A stretch of DNA of 64,000 bases from Octopus vulgaris (taxonomy: Eukaryota). The first letter of the stretch is position 1. Each line of letters begins with the position of its first letter. This document shows, piece by piece, positions 3,435 through 51,789 of the stretch. Under the pieces are notes generated by a model. It was not told where the DNA came from. It made no database searches and saw nothing but the letters and a program-made list of their open reading frames with translations. The DNA is taken from positions 22,320,001 through 22,384,000 of the forward strand of contig OX597828.1 of assembly GCA_951406725.2 (NCBI GenBank), in the 5' to 3' direction. The translations under genes and the position numbers were made by a program.

Positions 3435-3765
3435 CTAATATTTAGTTGACATGCCCTTTGCATTTATCAATACAAGGATCCTATAAGGCATGCTACTGAT
3501 CAGATGGGGAATCTCTTGCCAAGTTTCATGTAGTAATCTCAAAAGATCTGGCTTTGAAGATGCCTTCATGTTCCTTTTACCAGAGGTGTTGAATAGGTTT
3601 CATATCTGGTGGCTGGCTTTGTCATGGAAGTTTTTTAACGCCACTCTTTTCCAACCAATCTTGTGTCTTTCTAGCCGTGTGAGAAGGAGCCCCATATTCA
3701 ATAAATAAAGAGACTTTAATCGTTTTACCATTAGGAAAGATTGAAGGAGTCCTTTTTGCAATGAC
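3435..3765 (-). pseudogene. Tc1-like transposase C-terminal remnant
   Basis: With frameshifts and stops the minus strand reads APSHTARKTQDWLEKSGVKKLP*QSQPPDMKPIQHLW...TWQEIP..LISSMPYRILVLINAKGMSTKY*, matching the Tc1 motifs WPxQSPDLNPIEHLW and KGxxTKY. Confidence 0.85.
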
Positions 3766-3786: not shown

Positions 3787-4200
3787 TTTCTTTACTACCC
3801 ACAAGGGGCCAAACACAGAGAGGACAAAGAAGGACAAACAAACGGATTAAGTCGATTATATCTACCCTAGTGTGTAACTGGCACTTATTTAATCGACCCC
3901 GAAAAGATGAAAGGGAAAGTCGACCTCTGCGGAATTTGAAGTCAGAACATAGCGGCAGACGAAATACCTATTTCTTTGCTATTCACAAGGGTTCAAATAC
4001 AGAGAGGACAAACACGGAAAGACAAACGGATTAAGTCGATTATATCGAAACCAGTGTGTAACTGGTACTTATTTAATCGACCCCGAAAGGATGAAAGGCA
4101 AAGTCGACCTCGGCGGAATTAGAATTCAGAACGTAGCGGCAAACGAAATACCGCTGAGCATTTCGCCCGACGTGCTAAACTTTCTGCCAGCTCGCCGCTT
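3787..4200 (-). mobile_element. SINE family A dimer
   Basis: Two head-to-tail units, joined at aaagaaata|ggtatttcgtc on the minus strand. Confidence 0.9.
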
Positions 4201-7410: not shown

Positions 7411-7748
7411 TTGACAACTGACGTTAGTTTATTTACGTCCTTAAATCACAGATGCTCAGCAAAAGAGATCAGTAGAATATGTAATCTTAACGAAATAACA
7501 AAAAAAAAAAGGACTGTATCGATTTGTTTGAATAAACTGTTTTTTACAGAATGTCCAAATATGGACATTCTGCGGCTGTCTAGGGATTATGTTCTATAAT
7601 AACTTATCTCTCATATGCATTGTTTTAAAATAATATCCTCGTAATGTTATATAATATTTTTGAAAATAAATTTGTAATACTTTATCTCTCATATGTGTTA
7701 TATTAAAATAATATCCCCTTAGCAATATCAATTTAACCTTAAATTCTT

Positions 7749-7798
<50 letters not shown>

Positions 7799-7806
7799 AG
7801 AACTCT

Positions 7807-7869
<63 letters not shown>

Positions 7870-8071
7870 TATATATATATTTGCCCAATTTGTTTTATGT
7901 TATCGGTTTTCAATTAACCAACTATAACAAATTCAAGACCTTTTAAAACAATAGATGATCAATTAGATTACGCGACTGAACAAAAGTAACCCTTCCCCAC
8001 TTCCTGCAGGATTTCAACTACTCCGTCAACAAAAGATAACGGAGAAATAAACATATTACATATTTATATGA

Positions 8072-8117
<46 letters not shown>

Positions 8118-12291: not shown

Positions 12292-13061
12292 TAATCTTTT
12301 CTACTCTAGGCACAAGGCCTGAAAATTTTGGGGAGGGGGCCAGTCGATTAGATCAACCCCAGTACGCAAATGGTACTTAATTTATCGTCCCCGAAGGGAT
12401 AAATGGCAAAGTCGACCTCGGTGAAATTTGAACTCAGAAGTTACAGACAGACGAAATACCCATTTCTTTACTACCCATAAGGGACTAAAAACAGAGGAGA
12501 CAAACAAGGACAGATAGACGGATTAAGTCGATTATATCGACCCCAGTGCGTAACCGGTACTTAATTTATCGACCCCGAAAGGAGAAAAGGCAAAGTCGAC
12601 CTCGGCAGAATTTGAAATCAGAACGTAACGGCAGACGAAATACCTATTTCTTTACTACCCATAAGGGACTAAAAACAGAGGAGACAAACAAGGACAGACA
12701 GACGGATTAAGTCGATTATATCGACCCCAGTGCGTAACCGGTACTTAATTTATCGACCCCGAAAGGAGAAAAGGCAAAGTCGACCTCGGCAGAATTTGAA
12801 ATCAGAACGTAACGGCAGACGAAAGACCTATTTCTTTACTACCCACAAGGGGCTAAACACAGAAAGGACAAATAAGAACAGACAAACGGATTAAGTCGAT
12901 TATATCGACCCCAGTGCGTAACTGTTACTTATTTAATTGACCCCGAAAAGATGAAAGGCAAAGTGGACCTCGGCGTAATTTGAACTCAGAACGTAGCGGC
13001 AGACGAGATACCGCTAAGCATTTCGCCCGGCGTGCTAAGGTTTCTGCCAGCTCGCCGTCTT
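12292..13061 (-). mobile_element. SINE A tetramer (184-bp period) with a 12-bp TSD
   Basis: Unit starts at 12462, 12646 and 12830; TSD aactcaccgcta at 12280-12291 and 13062-13073; an older SINE A lies at ~12075-12291. Confidence 0.9.
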
Positions 13062-13235: not shown

Positions 13236-13830
13236 TACAAGGTTTGATCAATAAGTATCCGCACTGCTGTCATTGTAACGACGCTAATGCACACAGAGTA
13301 AAGCCGCTAGGCAAAGATTAACCTTGTACTCTGCTGTGCATGCGCGCTAAGTCTTAACGTTCTAGCTTACTTCCGCTATTTACAGCATTTCTTGGAAGGA
13401 AATGGTTTAGCGTATGGTCGTGGCATTTACCAGGACAGACAAAGTTGTCATGGCCATCGTTGCTCGGGGGTCTACACAAAGTTGCTGGAGGTGTTTGAAG
13501 AGGAGAGTATGTGCCGCACATAAGTGTAACAGTGTTTCAGACGTTTCCAAGATGGCCGAAAAAATGTCGATAATGACGAACGTTCTGAGAGATCTGCAAC
13601 CATCAGAAGAGAGAGAGAGAGACAATCATCGCAGATGTGTGAGCAGCTGTGAATGGAAATCGTCGTATCACCATCCGTGAGATATCAGAGGATGTGCAGA
13701 TTAATTACGGTTCAGTTCAGTTGATTATCACTGACAATTTGGGTATGAGAAACGTGTCTGACAAGTTTCAGAGAAAATGATTTCAGCTAACCAAAAAGAC
13801 AATCGGGTTTCTGTTTCACAAAAATCTCCT
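13236..13830 (+). mobile_element. Mariner-like element, 5' part (TIR plus transposase HTH remnant)
   Basis: TA-caaggtttgatcaataagt start; peptide remnants RFQDGRKNVDNDERSERSAT and NRRITIREISEDVQINYGSVQLIITDNLGMRNVSDKF. Confidence 0.85.
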
Positions 13831-13926
13831 GTATCGGCTTTTCCCTAGCATAACACCAGTGGCGCGGAGAGCGGACGCTGGTGAGTGCTGGTGACCCATA
13901 CATAACTTTTCCAGGATCTGAAAGGC

Positions 13927-13958
<32 letters not shown>

Positions 13959-13961
<3 letters not shown>

Positions 13962-14351
13962 GAAATAGAAAGATGAATAATCTTGTTGCAGATTAATCAA
14001 AAGTTTAGTTTCGGTCACAAAGAACATCTAAGCACCCCGTGCTCTCACCCGCCGGAATGACCGCTGCCTGACCCGTTAAAATCTTCAACGCACCCACCAC
14101 CCGTTTTCAACATACATTGATAAACAGTTTGGCCATGGGCTCTTAGGAGCCTCGTTCGATTTGTTTTGCTCCGCCTCTGTTCTGCTTTTGTTTTTTCCAA
14201 CGGATTTCCTATTTCTTCCTGAAGAGAAAGACACAATATGGTCTCCTTATTCAATCGGAATTTGGTAAATTGTGCCTTTCGAAACACGTGTAGAATGCAA
14301 TAAAACGATTTCTGTTCAATCTTCGTTCAACTCCATTTCTTCAATTCACTA

Positions 14352-14355
<4 letters not shown>
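13959..14355 (+). mobile_element. ~400-bp cassette between (TA)n tracts, probably a Penelope pseudo-LTR remnant
   Basis: Unique sequence bounded by TA runs; it contains an intact hammerhead followed by aataaa. Confidence 0.6.
14216..14295 (+). ncRNA. Type I hammerhead ribozyme, intact core
   Basis: uuc-CUGAAGA-gaaagacacaau(loop)auugugccuuuc-GAAA-cacgug-UA-gaa; stem II pairs 11 of 12 positions; palindromic stem III acacgugu; predicted cut after 14292. Confidence 0.85.
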
Positions 14356-14404
<49 letters not shown>

Positions 14405-14453
14405 TGCATGTTTGTATATAAATATACATGTATATGTATGTATATATATATAC

Positions 14454-14495
<42 letters not shown>

Positions 14496-14512
14496 TATAA
14501 TATATATATACA

Positions 14513-14546
<34 letters not shown>

Positions 14547-14661
14547 CATGTATAATTATATATAAACATGCATTCATATATGTATATACATATACATATA
14601 AATATACATATACATACACACACACGCACACACACAAACACACACACATACGCACACATAT

Positions 14662-17949: not shown

Positions 17950-18444
17950 TATATACATACATATAGATTTACATATATATGTGTGTATACGTGTGTCTGT
18001 GTCTGTGGTTGTGTGCGTACGTGTGTTCGCATGTACGTGCTTCTGTGTGTTTGTGTGTGCGTTTGTGTAAATAGAAGGCGATATGTATTAAAATGTTTCC
18101 TCATTCAGGTTTTCCCTGTTCCTAGTAATACAAGAATATAGATAATATGAAATTCCTGCAAGTAATCAATAAATTTCGAAAACGCTGATTAAAAACATAA
18201 CAACACGGCAATATATATGAGCAACAATGAATGTAATATATATTCCCTCCTAATCATGGATAAATATGAATACATTGCGAAGCATTAGCTATTTGCTGAA
18301 CTACAAAAACAAATTCTTAAGTATTGAGGAAGATAATATCGCTCAAATTAATGTCAAACTAAATAAACAAATGTCAACCACAAACACAATGCGCGTGTTC
18401 TCTCTGTTTGTATAATATTGATCTAAGGAATATTTATGGAATAT

Positions 18445-19168
18445 TAAACCGGTACTACGTCGGTTACGACGATGTGTCTTCCAGTCGGTTACAGTCGCTC
18501 AGAACGACAGAACAACCTACCCACTCATGATATTAACGAGCACGTGACTGAGTACTCCACAGATAGGTGTACCCGTGAATTAGTTTTCAGGAAGATTCAG
18601 TGTGACACAGAGAGGGACAAAGCTGGATCTTGTAATTAAATCGGTACTACGTCGGTTACGACGATGTGTCTTCCAGTCGGTTCCAGTCGCTCAGAACGAC
18701 AGAACAACCTACCCACTCGTGATATTAACGAGCACGTGACTGAGTACTCCACAGATACGTGTACCCATGAATTAGTTTTCAGGGAGATTCAGTGTGACAC
18801 AGAGAGGGACAAAGCTGGATCTTGTAATTAAACCAGTACTACGTCGGTTACGACGATGTGTCTTCCAGTCGGTTACAGTCGCTCAGAACGACAGAACAAC
18901 CTACCTACACGTGATATTAACGAGCACGTGACTGAGTACTCCACAGATACGTGTACCGATGAATTAGTTTTCAGGGAGATACAGTGTGACACAGAGAGGG
19001 ACAAAGCTGGATCTTTTGATAACGGGTACAACGGATTTTGCCAGCTGTATGGACCGGAGCAACATGAAGTAAAGTGTCTTGCTCAAAGACACAACGCACC
19101 GCCGGGAATTGAACTCAGGATCGTAAGATCGTGAACCGAATACCCGAAGCACTAAACCATACGCCGTC
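18445..19168 (-). mobile_element. SINE family D with a triplicated 192-bp 3' module and a 15-bp TSD
   Basis: Units at 18443, 18635 and 18827; tRNA-like head at ~19060-19168; TSD atatttatggaatat at 18430-18444 and 19169-19183. Confidence 0.88.
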
Positions 19169-19769
19169 ATATTTATGGAATATAAAATGATGTAGTCGCA
19201 GTCATTATGTTTCCATGACTGTATGACTGAGATCTGTATATGGTTTCGGGTTATACTGTGTAACATTTTGAAATAGTGTCTTGTAATTTAGCCCCGAACC
19301 GAAGCATGATTTGTGAGTGAATTTCCAAGATGGATATTCGCGTATATAACTGGGCCATATTGTAAATTGTTGTAGGTCTGACGACAGAGAACACATTTAC
19401 ATTGTGTCCATAGAAATCAATTTGAAATATCTCATATTCATATCTGAGATTCATATGTGACCCTCATTGCAATCTCCAATAAGATCGAACGCAGACACAC
19501 TGCATGCACACAAATATACACCATTAATTAAATCATTCTTATAAATAAAGAAATCATTAATTATAGGCGCAAGAACGACTGTTTGGTCACGAAGCTGGCT
19601 TTGGAACCACGTGATTTCTGGTTCAAATTTACTGTGCAGGACCGACTAAGGCCTCGCAAGTGAAGTTGACAGACAAAAAGTGTGAGAGCTTGTGTATTAT
19701 GTATGTACATCATTATTCAGTTGTATTTTAAGATTTCAACAACATCGACAGAATATTTTTGTATAAGAG

Positions 19770-20230
19770 CGTAGGCGAGAAAGATATGCCATAATATACA
19801 TCTGGAAGATCCTAGAAGGACTTGTCCCAAACTTTGGCATCGAGAGTTACACAAATACTAGAACTGGGCGCCACTGTATAGTGCCAAGGACTCCAAATTT
19901 GCCATCAAGATGTAGGACAAGATACTGTGGTAGCCTGGGCTTCAAAGATCCACAACTCTTCAATATCCTCCCGAAGGACCTGAGAGACCTGCATGGGGTG
20001 GATACAGATGTCTTTAAAATAAAACTGGATCTCTTGCTATCAGGTGTCCCAGATGAACCAACTTCACGGCAGGAGGTGCAGATGAGGGCAGCTGCATCGA
20101 ACTCTCTCATTCACCAAATGGCAATTGCTAAAACGCTTTCGTGAAGTAAAATCATGTAGCAACACCAAATGGTGGTGCCCCAGCATGGCCACAGCTCATG
20201 AGCTGAAACTAGATAAAATAAAACTAAAAA
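19770..20230 (+). mobile_element. LINE 3' end (CR1-group-like ORF2 C-terminus and 3' UTR)
   Basis: RRERYAIIYIWKILEGLVPN...FNILPKDLR...FKIKLDLLLSGVPDEP...RAAASNSL; A-rich tail; second copy at 36133-36360. The clade assignment is tentative. Confidence 0.8.
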
Positions 20231-29199: not shown

Positions 29200-31145
29200 T
29201 GCAGCGGATAGGTATTCATGTTTCTTTTAGGATGTGTGCAGTACCTGGTAGTGCTATTTTTTGTATGTTATATATATTTGTAAGTCCTGGTTGTTTTGTT
29301 ATGTATTTGTCTGAATATATTTTTTCATACCTAATGCGCTTACTATGATAGGAATTGTTTCTATTTTTAGATTCCACATTCGATTTACTTCTATTTCCAA
29401 GTCTTTGTATTTTGAAAGTTTCTCCATTTCTTTTAGAGAAACGTTGTCATCTGTTGGTATTGATACAGCAATTAGAAAGCATTTATATCTTCATGATCTC
29501 TAACAACTATATCTGGCCTACTGGCCTTAATTTCTATATCTGTGTGTATTGGCATATCGCATAGTATCGTTGCTTTCTCGTTTTGTGTGACCTTTTCTGG
29601 CGTGTGCTTATACCGTCTTTATTCTGTTGTTATTCCATAATGTTGGCATAGCTTCCAGTGTATGTAGGTCCCAACTCTGTCGTGTCTTATTCTTATGTTT
29701 CTTTTCATTTTCTGTTTTTGGTAATTTCTGGTGGGGAGGCTTTGGTCTTGTGCTGCAATTAAAAATCCTTCAGTCTCTGCTTTGAGTCCTCAACTTCTCA
29801 ACCATTGCTGGGATTTTTCTCTGTCTATTTCTTTTGCATTTAGTTTAGCCCAGTATTTGCTATGAAGGGGTTTATCTTGCCCTCGTTTTATCATGGTCCG
29901 TTGCAGTTCTAGTTTTAGTTTGGATTTCATTTGTTTTACAGCATTTGTCGTTTCTTCTTTTGCTTCATAGTTGTTACGTAGTATGACTTCTTGTTTCTAT
30001 TTGTCAGCTTCCTTAAAGACTAAGTTTTTTGTTTTGTTCGGATTTTGTGGATATTTGTATTATTAGTTTTCCTTGTTTCTGACGTAGGTATTTTTGAAAT
30101 CCTATGGTGGTTATTTTGTAATAGTTTTCTAGCTTTATAAGTCTTCTACCAGCTTCTATACGTTGTATGTATAAACTTTCTATGCCAGAATTTGGGTGGT
30201 GTATCCTAGATCCTGTCAGTATTTTTCTTCTTTTTTCTGTCTATTTTGATTAGTACATTTAGCGTCCAGTTGAGAATATCGTAGCTGTAACTTATAAATG
30301 GGACGACTAGGGTGCTGATGCCTATTAGCTTGTTTTTCGAATTGAGCTCAGTTTTCAATATAAATCTAACTAGTCCATTGTATTCTTTTTTATTTTATCT
30401 TTCATTTGTGTGTGTTGTGTCATATCTAGTTCATTGATTCCTAAATATTTACATGTCTGGCTTTGGTCTAATTTTCTTATTCCATTTGCTTTATCTAGTC
30501 TGATGTTGCTACTTTTAACTAGTTTTCCTCTTTTCAATGTTGCTTTGGCACATTTTACTAAGCCAAATTTCATATCTATTTCTTTGGTAAATCCATGTAC
30601 TGTCTCTTGTAATGTTTCCAGCAGTTTATCATATGTAGCGTACAGATTGAGGTAAGCAATATATAAGACGTGGCTGATTGTTTTGCCGTAACATTTGTAT
30701 TCGCATCCAGTTCTGGTTAGCATGTCAGATAAAGGTGTCAGTGCCAAGCAGAAAAGGAGTGGAGAAAGAGCGTGACTCCCTGGAACATACCTCTTATAAT
30801 GGGGATGGCTTTGATTTTTATGAGTCTCTATTTGGTTTGGAGCTGTAGCACTATGTGCCATTTTTTCATAGAGTTATGTATTTTATGATTATTGGTGCTA
30901 TATTGTTTATGGCTAGTGTTTCTAGGATCCATGTGTGGGGAATGCTACCAAAAGACTTTCGGTAGTCGATCCAGCGCATACTGAGGCCTGTTATCTTTCT
31001 GGGGCTGTCTTAAGTTTGGGTTTTATCGATCCTTAGTTGCTCTTTACAGCCGTATGAGCCTTTGCAGCATCCCTTCTGCTTTTCTGGAAACAGGTTGTTT
31101 TCTTCCAGATTCTTGTTCAATCTCTGCGATATAACTACAGTAAAG
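29200..31145 (-). mobile_element. R4/Dong-like LINE, decayed RT and RLE endonuclease region
   Basis: KGSYGCKEQL, WIDYRK, LSPLLFCLAL, MKFGLVKCA, KYLG, AETEGFLIAAQDQSL, RHDRVG, RPDIVV, EKLSKYKDLEIE, GTAHIL; abuts (TAA)n at 31148-31182. Confidence 0.93.
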
Positions 31146-34918: not shown

Positions 34919-35490
34919 AAGGCGGCGAGTTGACAAGAATCGTTAGCACGCCGGGCACAATACGTAGCCGTATTTCGTCTGCCGTTACGTTCTGAGTTCA
35001 AATTCCGCCGAAGTCGACTTTGCCTTTATCCTTTCGGGGTCGATAAATTAAGTACCAGTTACGCACTGGGGTAGATATAATCGAGTTAATCCGTTTGTCT
35101 GTCCTTGTTCGTCCCCTCTGTGTTTAGCCCCTTGTGGGTAGTAAAGAAATAGGTATTTCGTCTGCCGGTACGTTCTTTGTTCAAATTCCACCAAGGTCGA
35201 CTTTGCCTGTCATCCTTTCGGGGTCGATTAAATAAGTACCAGTTATGCACTGGGGTCGATATAATCGACTTAATTCGTCTGTCTGTCCTTGTTTGTAACC
35301 TCTGTGTGGGCAGTAAATAAATAGATATTACGTCTCTCTTTACATTCTGAGTCCAAATTCTTCAGAGGTTGATTTTTGCCTTTCATCCTTTCGGGGTTGA
35401 TAAATTAAGTACCAGTTGTGTACTGTGGTCGATCTTATTGACTGGCCCCCTTCCCCAAAATTTCGTGCTTTGTGCCTAGAATAGAAAATT
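34919..35490 (+). mobile_element. SINE A trimer
   Basis: Full head plus two 5'-truncated units; the first junction is aaagaaata|ggtatttcgtc. Confidence 0.9.
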
Positions 35491-48112: not shown

Positions 48113-50845
48113 AGACGTTTTGTTTTGGCGGTGAGTTAAACGTTTTGTTGAACGTTGGATAATTTTTTTTTTCCGTGGGAATTATTTATTGTTGAACATT
48201 TTCGAACTCATGAACATTATTGAGCTGTCAAACTTTAGAATTTTTTGGTACTTTTTCTCGGTGACGGGAGAAAGTAATTGTTTGTGTAAAGCCATTTTTG
48301 CAGTTGTGAATTGTTGAAATATTGAACTTGTTAAAGCCGTTGTAAGCTTTATTGTCGCCCCCGCCCCAGTGGGGGTGGGATTGAACTGTTATCCTCATTA
48401 AGAGGAAAAATATATTATAGGTTTCCCGGTTTTTTGGGGTAATCAATTCATTGTCTGAAAAATTTAATTTTAGACATTGTAGGCTTTATTGTGGCACCCC
48501 GCCCCTAGCGCGTGTGAGATTTGAACTGTTATCCTCCTTGTGAGAACAAAAAAACAAAACATATTTCCCGTTTTTTTGGTATACCGTATTTTTATTATTG
48601 TATGAAAAATCTAATTTCGACCGTTGTATGCTTTGCTGTTACGTCTCGCCCCCAGCGGGGGTGGGATTTGAACTATTGTCCTCATTGAGAGGAAAAAAAA
48701 TAAAAAATTATAGGTTTCCCGTTTTCTGGGATTAAATTATGTATAAATTTATTTCCAACGAATATGTCGGTCGAAATAATTTCAGAGAAAAATTAACTGG
48801 AAGAGCCAATTAAGAAATTTTCAGCATTTATCGCGGTGGCTACTGAAAACGTCGAACTACCAAAGGAAAAGCTTTCCGAGCTTTTTGAAAAAATGAAAGA
48901 AGTCGGGGGTGATATAAAAATATCACAAGAAGTGAAAACGAAAAAGGAAGCACCACACCACAAAAAAAAATAAACGACCCCGCCCCATTGTCCCATAAGG
49001 AAAAACGAAAGATAACGAACAGAAAACCCTGGTAAAATATGACACCAGAGACAAATACATTGAGAACATTGTAAAAGATCACCACACCAGCACGCTGTTT
49101 GAACAGCACACGGACTTAAGAGAAAGATGTGCCTGGATAGGAGAAGGCCTTTACAGGCAACTGAAGGACAGGCATCCAAAGACCATCAGGAGTATCCCAG
49201 ACCTTCCAGGATATTTGAAGAAGGAGGAGGAAGAGAGGGCTGCCTAATGTGTTGCGAGGTCAGCCCCAACATCCCCAGTGAAGGGTAAGTTGAACCCTTG
49301 TAATTTTTTCCTTGTTTTGGCTGCACTTAATCTTGGATGTTTGAATATGCGTGGTCTGAGCAAGAAGTGAAAACAAGCTTGTTTCCTTGACGACCTCAGA
49401 TCACACGATAAGCATGTGATGTTAGTTTTAGCTGTCCACAGCTTGTCCAAGTAACTTACACTGACCATATAATGGTTAAGTGTAGACTGGACAAACATAG
49501 TACAGTTAAGAGTGGATCCGGCTACTGGAAGCTAAACGAGTCTATTTCGAATTGGGAGGCATACCGTAGCCGGGTAAAGGAATAACCGGTTAATAACCGA
49601 TGATGGTTCACCCACAAGAGAGCCATTCGTTTTGAGTCTGTTAGGTTTAGCCATCAGCTAAGACTAGATAAGGCCAGAATAGAAGAGCAGCTAGTTAAGG
49701 ACATAGAGGAGGCGTTGAGATTGGGTTGTGCATCTCATATTTTTGCAGCGAGAACGGCCTTGGGCTGTCACCTCAAAGCCAAACATGAGGGGTGCAGAAT
49801 TCGGGCTAAAGTACGCGCATTGGGCCGTGAGGGAATTAATGTTGCCGGATCGGCCCGTACGCTAGAAACCTAGCGTGGCAATAATTCAACAACTAGGTCT
49901 CTCGTTGATGACAATGGGTGTTCAGTCGATGGACAGGACGAGATATGTGAGGTGCTTCACAAGCATTTTGCCTAGTTGTTCGGGGGGGGGGGGGGCTGGG
50001 TGATGGTGTAGCCCTTAGGGACTTCCTCTCTGGTGGCCCGCGTCTCTCGGCACTAGAGGCGGAGTGCTATGAAGGGCCAATCAGAGCAGAGGATATGATC
50101 GAGGTACTGGGCGAATGCCCCGGGGAGAAGTCGTCGGGTCTCAATGGTCTGCCTTCTGAATTTTACAAAAGTATGCCAGACTTGTTCGAGCACCTGCTGT
50201 CCAGCGTCTACTCCAATTGGCAGTAGAATGGGAGATTTCCCAAGTCTGCGAGCCGTGGAGTGGTGACGGTGATCAAGAAGGACCCGAAAAAGTGGGATGG
50301 AATAGGGAGTTTCAGGCCCATAACTCTGCTGAACACAGAGTTAAAGACTTTGGCCGAGGTGCTAGTGAAAAGGTTGGCGCGGGTCGTAGACAGACTTGGA
50401 GGGGAAGCACAAACATTCGTTATCCCGGGCAGGGCGATCCACGACAATCTCCACCTTATACGATACTCCTTAGAGAGGCTGGGAAGCTTTCTGGTGCAGA
50501 GGAGGCACTGGTACATTTAGACCAGTCTAAGGCATTTAATAGGGTCGGCCATCGGTACTTGGCGGCAGTCCTCGAGAAGGTTGGCTTAGACCTGACCATC
50601 CGCGGTTGGATTGCTGCGTTGTACAGCGACAACGAGTCTATCATAAAAGTAAACGGTTTCCTTTCGAAGCCATTCAGTATCGAGCGCTCAGAGTGTCAAG
50701 GGTATACCGTATCTCCGCTTTTTTATGTGTTGGCTCTTGAACAATTTATGCGGAATTTAGAGGTACTAGGGGGCGCACCGCATGATCTATGGTGTGGAAG
50801 AGGAGCTACGGCATATGCGGATGACATCTCCATCATCGTGATAGA
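48113..50845 (+). mobile_element. Tx1/L1-like LINE, decayed and 3'-truncated
   Basis: APE remnants LGCLNMRGL and WKLNES; RT motifs SGLNGLPSEFY, FRPITLLNTELKTLA, GRAIHDN, LDQSKAFNRV, QGYTVSPLFYVLALE and AYADD. Confidence 0.92.
48338..48735 (+). repeat. Three diverged ~140-bp tandem monomers upstream of the LINE coding region
   Basis: The motif ttgta.gcttt..tgt...cgcccc.ag.g.g.gtg.gatt(t)gaact.tt.tcctc.tt..gag.a.aaaa...tttccc.ttttt occurs three times. Confidence 0.85.
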
Positions 50846-51789
50846 GAATGCTTCAGCATGGCAGCTGTCAAATAACAGAAACAAGTAAAAGAGTAAAAGA
50901 GTACATGTGTAGATGTAAAGGTAGCTGGAGATATAGATATAGATGAGAGTTGGTTACTTGAAAATGCACCTGAGTCTTGAAATGAATCTTAATATTTATT
51001 TTTCTTTTCAATTTCTAAAATTTAATAAAATTGAATAAGTTTCAATCAATTGTTCTGTTACAAAATGATAAATATAAAATGGAAACAATTCGAAAAAAGC
51101 AAAATAAAGATAATGCTCGGGAGTTAGTTTCATAATTATAAAGCATGCTGAAAAGTGAAAATCTGGAAGAGGTGCCGAAGCATATTTACTGGATGAATAT
51201 TCATGCGTTCATTAAAACACACTGCAATAAGAAATTATGAAAGTGCAAAGAACCGATAAATTCCATAGCAATAATACGCAATAGAATTTTGAAGGTTTAT
51301 TAAGATTAATAGCAATAATGTATATTTGCAATTATACGTGATGAAGATTTTAACATGCGACAAACAAAATTTTTACAACTTGCGGTGTTTCGTACGTTTA
51401 GATATTTAACTGTTTTGTCTTTAGCATCCTCATATTAATTTACGGCAGATATGCATATTCTCTATATATATATATATATATATGTATATATGTGTATGCA
51501 TATATATATATGTGTGTGTATGCGTGTATGAACTTTTATGTGATTATATATGCATATACACACTTGCATATATACACATACATGCTTATATACATGCATA
51601 TGTGTGTACACATGCACATTGACGCATAGACATACACACACATATATAGTACATATTCGAATCTGGCATTAATTATATATTATGTACATATATACATATA
51701 TGTTTGTATGTATGCATGCATGTGTGTGTATATAAGTATATATATATATATATATACATACACATATTTATATATATTTATATATATAC

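Follow-up and report, generated by a model that had tools for sequence, protein, structure and literature searches.

The window examined here, a 64,000-nt stretch of the Octopus vulgaris genome (contig OX597828.1), contains a single match to the hammerhead ribozyme pattern when both strands are searched. The motif lies within a 0.4-kb cassette set between TA runs (Table 1). The cassette derives from a 3.62-kb Penelope-like element (PLE), of which it is a partly inverted copy truncated at the 5' side: compared with a natural copy of the element elsewhere in the genome (L061), it consists of the reverse complement of positions 8038-8090 followed by positions 7572-7933 in sense orientation. This copy carries one hammerhead, no ORF and no partner in cis, and the ORFs listed in the window are mostly microsatellite ORFs and retroelement scraps. 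The sequence directly upstream of the cassette (13250-13930) resembles a decayed mariner-type DNA transposon. Elsewhere in the window are short tandem SINE-like repeat arrays without an Rfam match (184-nt units at 3787-4152, 12342-13012 and 34970-35307; 192-nt units at 18443-19015) and open frames that, by eye, resemble fragments of non-LTR retrotransposon RT (19767-20144, 30370-30873 and 50160-50888).

Table 1. Features of the hammerhead and of the cassette that carries it (positions in the 64-kb window).
Feature	Position	Strand	Remarks
(TA)n microsatellite, left part of insertion target	13930..13958	.	
Inverted piece covering the final ~50 nt of the 155-nt tail, up to b	13954..14007	-	98% to L061 8090-8038
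TTTA, 4-nt microhomology at the inversion junction	14004..14007	.	
Sense 3' UTR / pseudo-LTR fragment, ending at a	14004..14355	+	96% to L061 7572-7933
Helix I, 5' arm	14210..14218	+	3-bp core TTC 14216-18; possible distal extension 14210-15 (inferred)
Catalytic core C3-A9, CUGAAGA (DNA CTGAAGA)	14219..14225	+	
Long helix II and 31-nt loop 2 containing a sub-hairpin	14226..14280	+	11/12 bp
Core G12-A13-A14	14281..14283	+	GAAA spans 14281-84
Helix III, perfect 8-nt palindrome ACACGTGT, dimerisation helix	14284..14291	+	
A17, predicted cleavage 3' of this base	14292..14292	+	hammerhead numbering; GUA triplet 14290-92
Helix I, 3' arm GAA 14293-95, bulged U, possible distal extension	14293..14302	+	
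AATAAA, putative poly(A) signal	14299..14304	+	7 nt past the cut
(TA)n-rich microsatellite, right-hand side of insertion target	14352..14616	.	

The motif has the complete core of a type I hammerhead (C3-U4-G5-A6-N7-G8-A9, G12-A13-A14, A15.1-U16.1 and H17) and its topology, with three helices, helix I open, and covariation that supports the pairing. Positions follow the conventional hammerhead numbering, in which C3 is 14219, G12 is 14281 and A17 is 14292. Helix II pairs 14226-37 with 14269-80 in 11 of 12 positions, with one A.C mismatch, and is closed by G10.1-C11.1. Helix I can be extended past the bulged U by five of six pairs (14210-15 with 14297-302); an A14298 allele, found in 35 of 106 copies, would complete all six, and in monomer folding this distal extension is rarely populated (P<=0.04). 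The original prediction had listed the CUGAAGA / GAAA / GUA core, an 11-of-12-bp stem II with a closing G-C pair, a palindromic stem III, a 3-bp stem I, a nearby AATAAA and a TA-bounded cassette of about 400 bp, and each of these is present at the positions it gave. Its cut site after 14292 is likewise supported as the predicted cleavage position of a type I hammerhead, and its suggestion that dimerisation may be required also stands. What it overlooked is the nature of the cassette, which is the truncated, inverted 3' end of a high-copy PLE.

For the bare core pattern, one match was observed in the window where 0.04 would be expected, and 4 of 100 shuffled windows contained it; with the helix requirements added, none of 100 block shuffles gave a match. 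No gathering-level Rfam match was obtained within the 64-kb window, and no hammerhead family was reported at E<=10 in 13900-14450; Rfam matches at E<=10 in the window were limited to microsatellite-driven miRNA-type and other chance matches. A match to Rfam is not part of the definition of a hammerhead, and the 55-nt helix II arm is atypical.

The genome comprises 2.8 Gb in 227 contigs. With the cassette (13960-14352) as query we identified at least 44 long matches at 96-100% identity, scoring the best 40 of 2067 first-look candidates, and the 126 nt around the ribozyme are unchanged at at least 41 other places (best 40 of 960 candidates scored); both counts are floors and not copy numbers. 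The window locus is therefore not special. In many copies the first 48 nt of the query match the opposite strand about 108 nt past the end of the cassette. The hammerhead was located at 106 distinct places in 120 loci and is intact in 95 of them; these 120 are drawn from 147 loci, the other 27 belonging to other families. An initial reading of the cassette as a 1.2-kb non-autonomous element with a fixed 5' start was dropped on finding that copies extend upstream into an ORF.

The parent unit (3624 nt) comprises an ORF of about 900 codons, a 3' UTR of about 680 nt, the hammerhead and, as its tail, a further 155 nt. Copies terminate at either of two sites 155 nt apart, which lie about 60 nt (a) and about 215 nt (b) downstream of the cut. 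The tail is also the beginning of the next unit, whose ATG follows about 40 nt after b, and the hammerhead lies about 340 nt before that ATG. L061 has an open frame of 908 codons that ends 683 nt upstream of the hammerhead, and in 14 of 21 loci chosen by their ORF start the frame stays open for 895-904 codons. Divergence between subfamilies reaches 9% across the unit. This is a young, high-copy PLE family with many intact ORFs. The ORF protein has 115 homologues (best E 3e-119), one of them named from Argonauta, and combines RT (YRDD) with a GIY-YIG-type endonuclease (EN; AVYQC..YVG) in a single frame, as in EN+ PLEs, and the copies show the anatomy of that group, with partial-tandem and inverted pseudo-LTRs (pLTRs), an optional tail and 5' truncation. 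Pfam gave no match for the element protein and reported GIY-YIG in one of 13 aligned members (E 0.0016); a search of PDB sequences with the ORF returned nothing useful.

Hydra-clade PLEs (Craig et al. 2021, PMC8557442) resemble the element in having a single ORF with RT and a C-terminal EN, a DKT motif, an R-W motif, a CxxC..E..N..CxH end, a (TA)n target, a 3' hammerhead, and tandem and inverted copies. In the element, DKT (in place of DKG) is present as SDKT, and the CxxC / CxH arrangement around conserved E and N, with no CCHH, is present as CNLCVSE..VN..RCPH in most copies; (TA)n insertion and the 3' hammerhead are both found. RIRWL stands at the RWK position, where relatives carry RWK, RWR, RWA or RWE. 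In contrast to the clade as described (PMC8557442), the CxCX5C linker is absent although (TA)n targeting is kept. A Ser/Asn-rich stretch occupies the linker position; Asn-rich inserts between RT and EN have been described in rotifer PLEs (PMC3846280). The unit, at 3.62 kb, is larger than the published Hydra PLEs, which are generally <3 kb (PMC8557442). The element thus departs from the clade in two listed features, the linker and the size, and we file it as a Hydra-like PLE variant and not a plain member of the Hydra clade. Closer relatives may be present in the sequence files or in figures S7-S8 of PMC8557442.

The linker is missing from all six complete proteins of this branch and present in 37 of the other 41 rows, the remaining four being cut short. 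A quick unrooted tree was drawn from 48 rows, without named Hydra references or an outgroup: 12 come from this genome, and 36 are those among the top 40 homologues with a length of at least 600 aa. In it, the linker-less proteins form one branch (SH-aLRT 100) among linker-bearing DKT proteins. The elements that encode them end at (TA)n, with a 46-62 nt and b 200-219 nt past the cut.

Conservation within the family says little about the ribozyme. The 11 core columns hold three minor cells in 1166, and variants common to at least five copies fall in loop 2 (four columns), the helix II mismatch, its loop-end pair and distal helix I; none was found in the 11 core columns, in helix III or in the 3-bp helix I. 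This test is weak, since shared variants are likewise absent from 28 flank columns, so that no excess conservation of the core over the flanks can be detected. Comparison with sister families is more informative. Among 20 sister-family loci, 13 have a hammerhead and four more have one with a CCGAAGA core; none was found at the remaining three (L132, L140 and L142). Eight related rows, out of 16 motifs, could be aligned, and in this alignment 7 of 19 pairs change on both sides (shuffled mean 3.7, with 0 of 500 shuffles reaching 7; slid controls 0-2). Six of the 12 helix II pairs show such changes, and RNAalifold finds helix II unaided; the helix I pairs are invariant or change on one side and are hence uninformative. 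AATAAA follows shortly after the cut in all eight rows.

Helix III is self-complementary in 16 of 16 hammerheads, in five sequence types, and the search pattern was blind to palindromes. Its two central bases are C-G in three rows, U-A in three and U-G in two. These bases are adjacent and cannot pair in a monomer, so the centre of helix III pairs only in a double hammerhead. The motif resembles dimeric hammerheads in its self-complementary helix III, which has no viable loop and has been kept in evolution. Together, the compensatory changes in helix II and the covariation at the helix III centre make it likely that the motif is under selection as a dimer; as the rows are related, independent events are few, and the C-G/U-G/U-A series may represent just two.

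Several other variants were observed among these loci. One sister family with frames of 778-786 codons combines a palindromic helix III with the CCGAAGA core (U4 to C), which all five copies seen share (L137:~3490-3570, L138, L139 and L146). At four loci (L133, L134, L143 and L147) helix I continues distally past an internal loop, TTCCT pairing with AGGAA, in a register no longer present in the window's family. At least four more hammerhead families, with other helices I and II and a self-complementary helix III, were seen at L128, L129/L130, L130:6029-6120 and L147:156-272.

Predicted folding agrees with the need for a partner. The monomer is no more stable than its shuffles (z = 0.20); pair probabilities are 0.84-0.94 in helix II, which forms, and <=0.02 in helices I and III. 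The active monomer is modelled at -10.3 kcal/mol against -14.2 for a competing UCUU/AAGA hairpin that buries the core. For the active dimer the model gives -35.7 kcal/mol, compared with -20.6 for two monomers; the cofold minimum, at -40.7, is 5 kcal/mol lower than the dimer. On these energies dimerisation is predicted to be necessary for the active fold, yet insufficient, and the dimer dependence put forward originally is backed both by this modelling and by the covariation at the loop-less helix III centre. That dimerisation should not suffice is in line with reports that animal PLE hammerheads cleave weakly (PMC4209133) and that the hammerhead of PAc, a Poseidon PLE of Anolis, cleaves only with the element's protein (PMC11167929).

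The ends of the copies follow a simple rule. Of the 84 ends scored in L001-L065, 82 abut (TA)n. They form 49 end clusters, of which 17 have a single end, two are complex and 30 are simple inverted insertions (one inverted and one forward end); every one of these 30 pairs an a end with a b end, with none a+a or b+b. Twenty further loci included eight that could be scored, and 8 of 8 were again a+b, bringing the total to 38 of 38 scorable simple inverted insertions. Since both element ends lie downstream of the cut, the template of the RT spans the scissile bond. A separate tally in windows of a few kb gave 75 clusters, 46 of them single, 26 inverted only and three direct, so that a partner in cis is lacking for most insertions. 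That the tail is found on one of two inverted pLTRs is known qualitatively (PMC3846280; PMC8557442 Fig. 2 legend). Our literature search, which covered few subscription journals, returned neither a count of tailed inverted pLTRs nor a twin-priming model for PLEs, and no paper on the window's PLE family.

At the 5' side, 17 of the loci chosen by ORF start have their 5' end inside the fetched stretch, and none is truncated at the cut. In six of these 17 the 5' end lies 187-219 nt before the ATG, near site a (L148-L167; the interval was chosen post hoc), which is possibly a transcript start or an AT-rich annealing hot spot. At 11 of the 21 ORF-start loci the 5' side continues across the hammerhead without a break. 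Ten of the 21 carry a pair of sense hammerheads spaced 3.6-3.7 kb; in one more locus the spacing is 2.0 kb.

A longer tandem is also present. This array on contig C1 has three whole units and a 1.4-kb partial unit, head to tail, with four hammerheads spaced 3624-3625 nt; the units differ by one or two single-base gaps. Its 3.4 near-identical units (L096-L097, C1:119.514-119.527 Mb) end at b in (TA)n, and adjoining them is an unrelated PLE fragment (RT end, Cys linker and a GIY-YIG-like part) in the form of an inverted repeat. Where both kinds of repeat are present (13 of the 21 ORF-start loci), differences number 23 in 4575 nt for direct repeats and 36 in 8979 nt for inverted arms (p = 0.41); a first impression that the direct repeats were more diverged disappeared once the alignment ends were trimmed. 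None of 66 differences between 5' and 3' repeats recurs between loci. Direct repeats are no more diverged than inverted arms, and with no recurring differences the repeats therefore look freshly copied from one RNA. Their identity fits a circle and template jumping on a linear RNA alike.

We infer that the window carries a type I hammerhead in the 3' pseudo-LTR of a young PLE, likely to cleave only as a double hammerhead; because of this, the lone copy in the window is probably passive. Where a read-through transcript covers tandem copies, two of its hammerheads, 3.6 kb from each other, would pair by way of the palindromes, probably aided by the element's protein, and a double cut would release unit-length RNA. 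Such dimer cleavage in tandem transcripts is probable. The template for the RT would be either the monomer re-ligated to a circle or the uncut read-through RNA. The endonuclease would then nick both (TA)n strands, one 3' end priming at a and the other at b, and the two cDNAs would join by microhomology into an inverted cassette like that in the window. We lean towards such priming from both strands, with a and b as the start sites; a rival route is self-priming on an antisense template (PMC3846280). Regarding the main template, uncut linear RNA with jumping is quite possible, and a circle can be put forward tentatively.

The main competing explanation accepts the hammerhead as real and selected but places its cleavage outside transposition: the template would be linear read-through RNA on which the RT jumps between the 155-nt terminal repeats, while the ribozyme trims or limits multimers or simply rides along. 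The position of both ends 3' of the cut fits this, as do the lack of 5' truncation at the cut and the post hoc cluster of six 5' ends near a. For PAc, the one PLE tested in vitro, unprocessed RNA was the dominant substrate, hammerhead mutants were reported to have no effect on insertion, and no RNA-seq reads ending at the cut were reported (PMC11167929); Naiads, moreover, proliferate without hammerheads (PMC8557442 sec. 15). Left unexplained, however, is why dimer-only pairing has been kept across families, and the 11 of 21 loci that continue across the hammerhead and the near-perfect 3.4-unit array would both arise easily from a circle. We regard this explanation as a serious contender, short of being the favoured one.

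Cleavage by double hammerheads in tandem transcripts is also preferred over a role for the window copy itself, either as an active monomeric ribozyme or as an RNA-processing signal of a host transcript beside a poly(A) signal. Its intact core with AATAAA 7 nt later and its well-formed helix II would suit such a role; nevertheless, helices I and III hardly form in the monomer, at least 41 other young copies share exactly this sequence, and the surrounding ORFs are mostly microsatellite and retroelement scraps, which makes it highly improbable. Less credible still is a non-autonomous retrozyme-type unit moving as a circle of about 400 nt. Size, TA boundaries and a type I hammerhead recall metazoan retrozymes (PMC7229834), and one locus on contig C2 (L002/L003) has two similar cassettes in direct tandem 592 nt apart; against this, 5' ends vary continuously between loci and enter the RT-EN ORF, the inversion junction of the C2 cassettes differs and so marks a separate truncation event, and the exact junction of the window occurs in no other copy among the best 40 scored. 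A chance motif or dead relic with no selected structure is scarcely tenable, for although the bare pattern arises in some shuffled windows, Rfam is silent and the fold is of ordinary stability, this would leave the compensatory changes, the constant post-ORF position in sister families and the hammerheads reported in published Hydra elements (PMC8557442 supplement) without a cause. The C2 cassettes themselves (L002:907-1297 and 1499-1889) are two truncated inverted copies of about 380 nt on either side of a TA run, and are possibly a cis-dimer or a retrozyme precursor.

A single and truncated copy such as that in the window is probably a passive, silent by-product of retrotransposition, and the working copies would be the tandem ones at other genomic sites. 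Cleavage of the window copy in vivo is unlikely, as it has one hammerhead, no ORF and no known transcript. Taken as a whole, the fullest version of the reading is that a lineage of linker-less Hydra-like PLEs uses a dimer-only hammerhead as a copy counter and moves by a two-site-primed 3.6-kb circle. A one-unit transcript would remain uncut as polyadenylated mRNA, whereas two cuts in a tandem read-through would separate it from its AAUAAA and lead to ligation into a 3.6-kb circle, to be primed from both nicked (TA)n strands at two fixed sites 155 nt apart, always one each. It is rather unlikely that all of this holds. Were it true, the tails, inversions and perfect tandem arrays of PLEs would be explained together, and the zinc-finger linker would be dispensable for (TA)n targeting.

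The role of hammerheads for PLEs is still open (PMC8557442 sec. 15; PMC11167929), and the window's family is a good test system, being young and having many intact ORFs and near-perfect tandem arrays; its 155-nt tail makes a and b ends readily distinguishable. Hammerheads in PLE pseudo-LTRs are already known and the motif alone is ordinary: that in the window is a known kind of ribozyme in a new Hydra-like PLE variant, at a locus that is one of many dead-end copies. Three results go beyond the published work found. These are the covariation at the loop-less centre of helix III, which is comparative evidence of dimer action, the one-a-one-b rule for inverted insertions (38/38), and the persistence of (TA)n targeting without the linker finger proposed to mediate it.

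The closest described motifs are the type I hammerheads of PLEs (Cervera and De la Pena 2014, PMC4209133), which share the pseudo-LTR location, long helix II, short helix I, palindromic helix III, G10.1-C11.1 pair and proposed action as dimers. Helix II here has 12 bp and a structured 31-nt loop, versus 7-8 bp in the S. mansoni motifs; further differences from the motifs described there are that no unpaired base stands between 9 and 10.1 and that the palindrome is a perfect 8-mer with a centre that covaries across sister families. Hydra-1_Obim of Octopus bimaculoides (PMC8557442) is 2507 bp long and has another hammerhead, with helix III acca-a-tggt; the tail of Hydra-clade elements is given as 30-40 nt, compared with 155 nt here (PMC8557442). 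Metazoan non-LTR retrozymes (PMC7229834; bioRxiv 10.64898/2026.07.22.740005) are alike in their type I hammerhead, size of a few hundred nt and proposed origin from PLEs. They consist of a fixed-length non-coding tandem unit with a hammerhead in each repeat, unlike the window cassette, which arose by truncation from an autonomous element whose copies vary in their 5' ends. PAc (Frangieh et al. 2024, PMC11167929) also has two ends that define a tail, an AT-rich target and a hammerhead upstream of both ends, and both DNA strands are extended in vitro. In PAc the tail measures 30-40 nt and the hammerhead extends over the start of the ORF (PMC11167929), whereas the hammerhead of the octopus element lies about 340 nt before the next ATG. 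Set against PAc, the strict one-a-one-b pairing of ends in genomic copies is a feature of the window's family.
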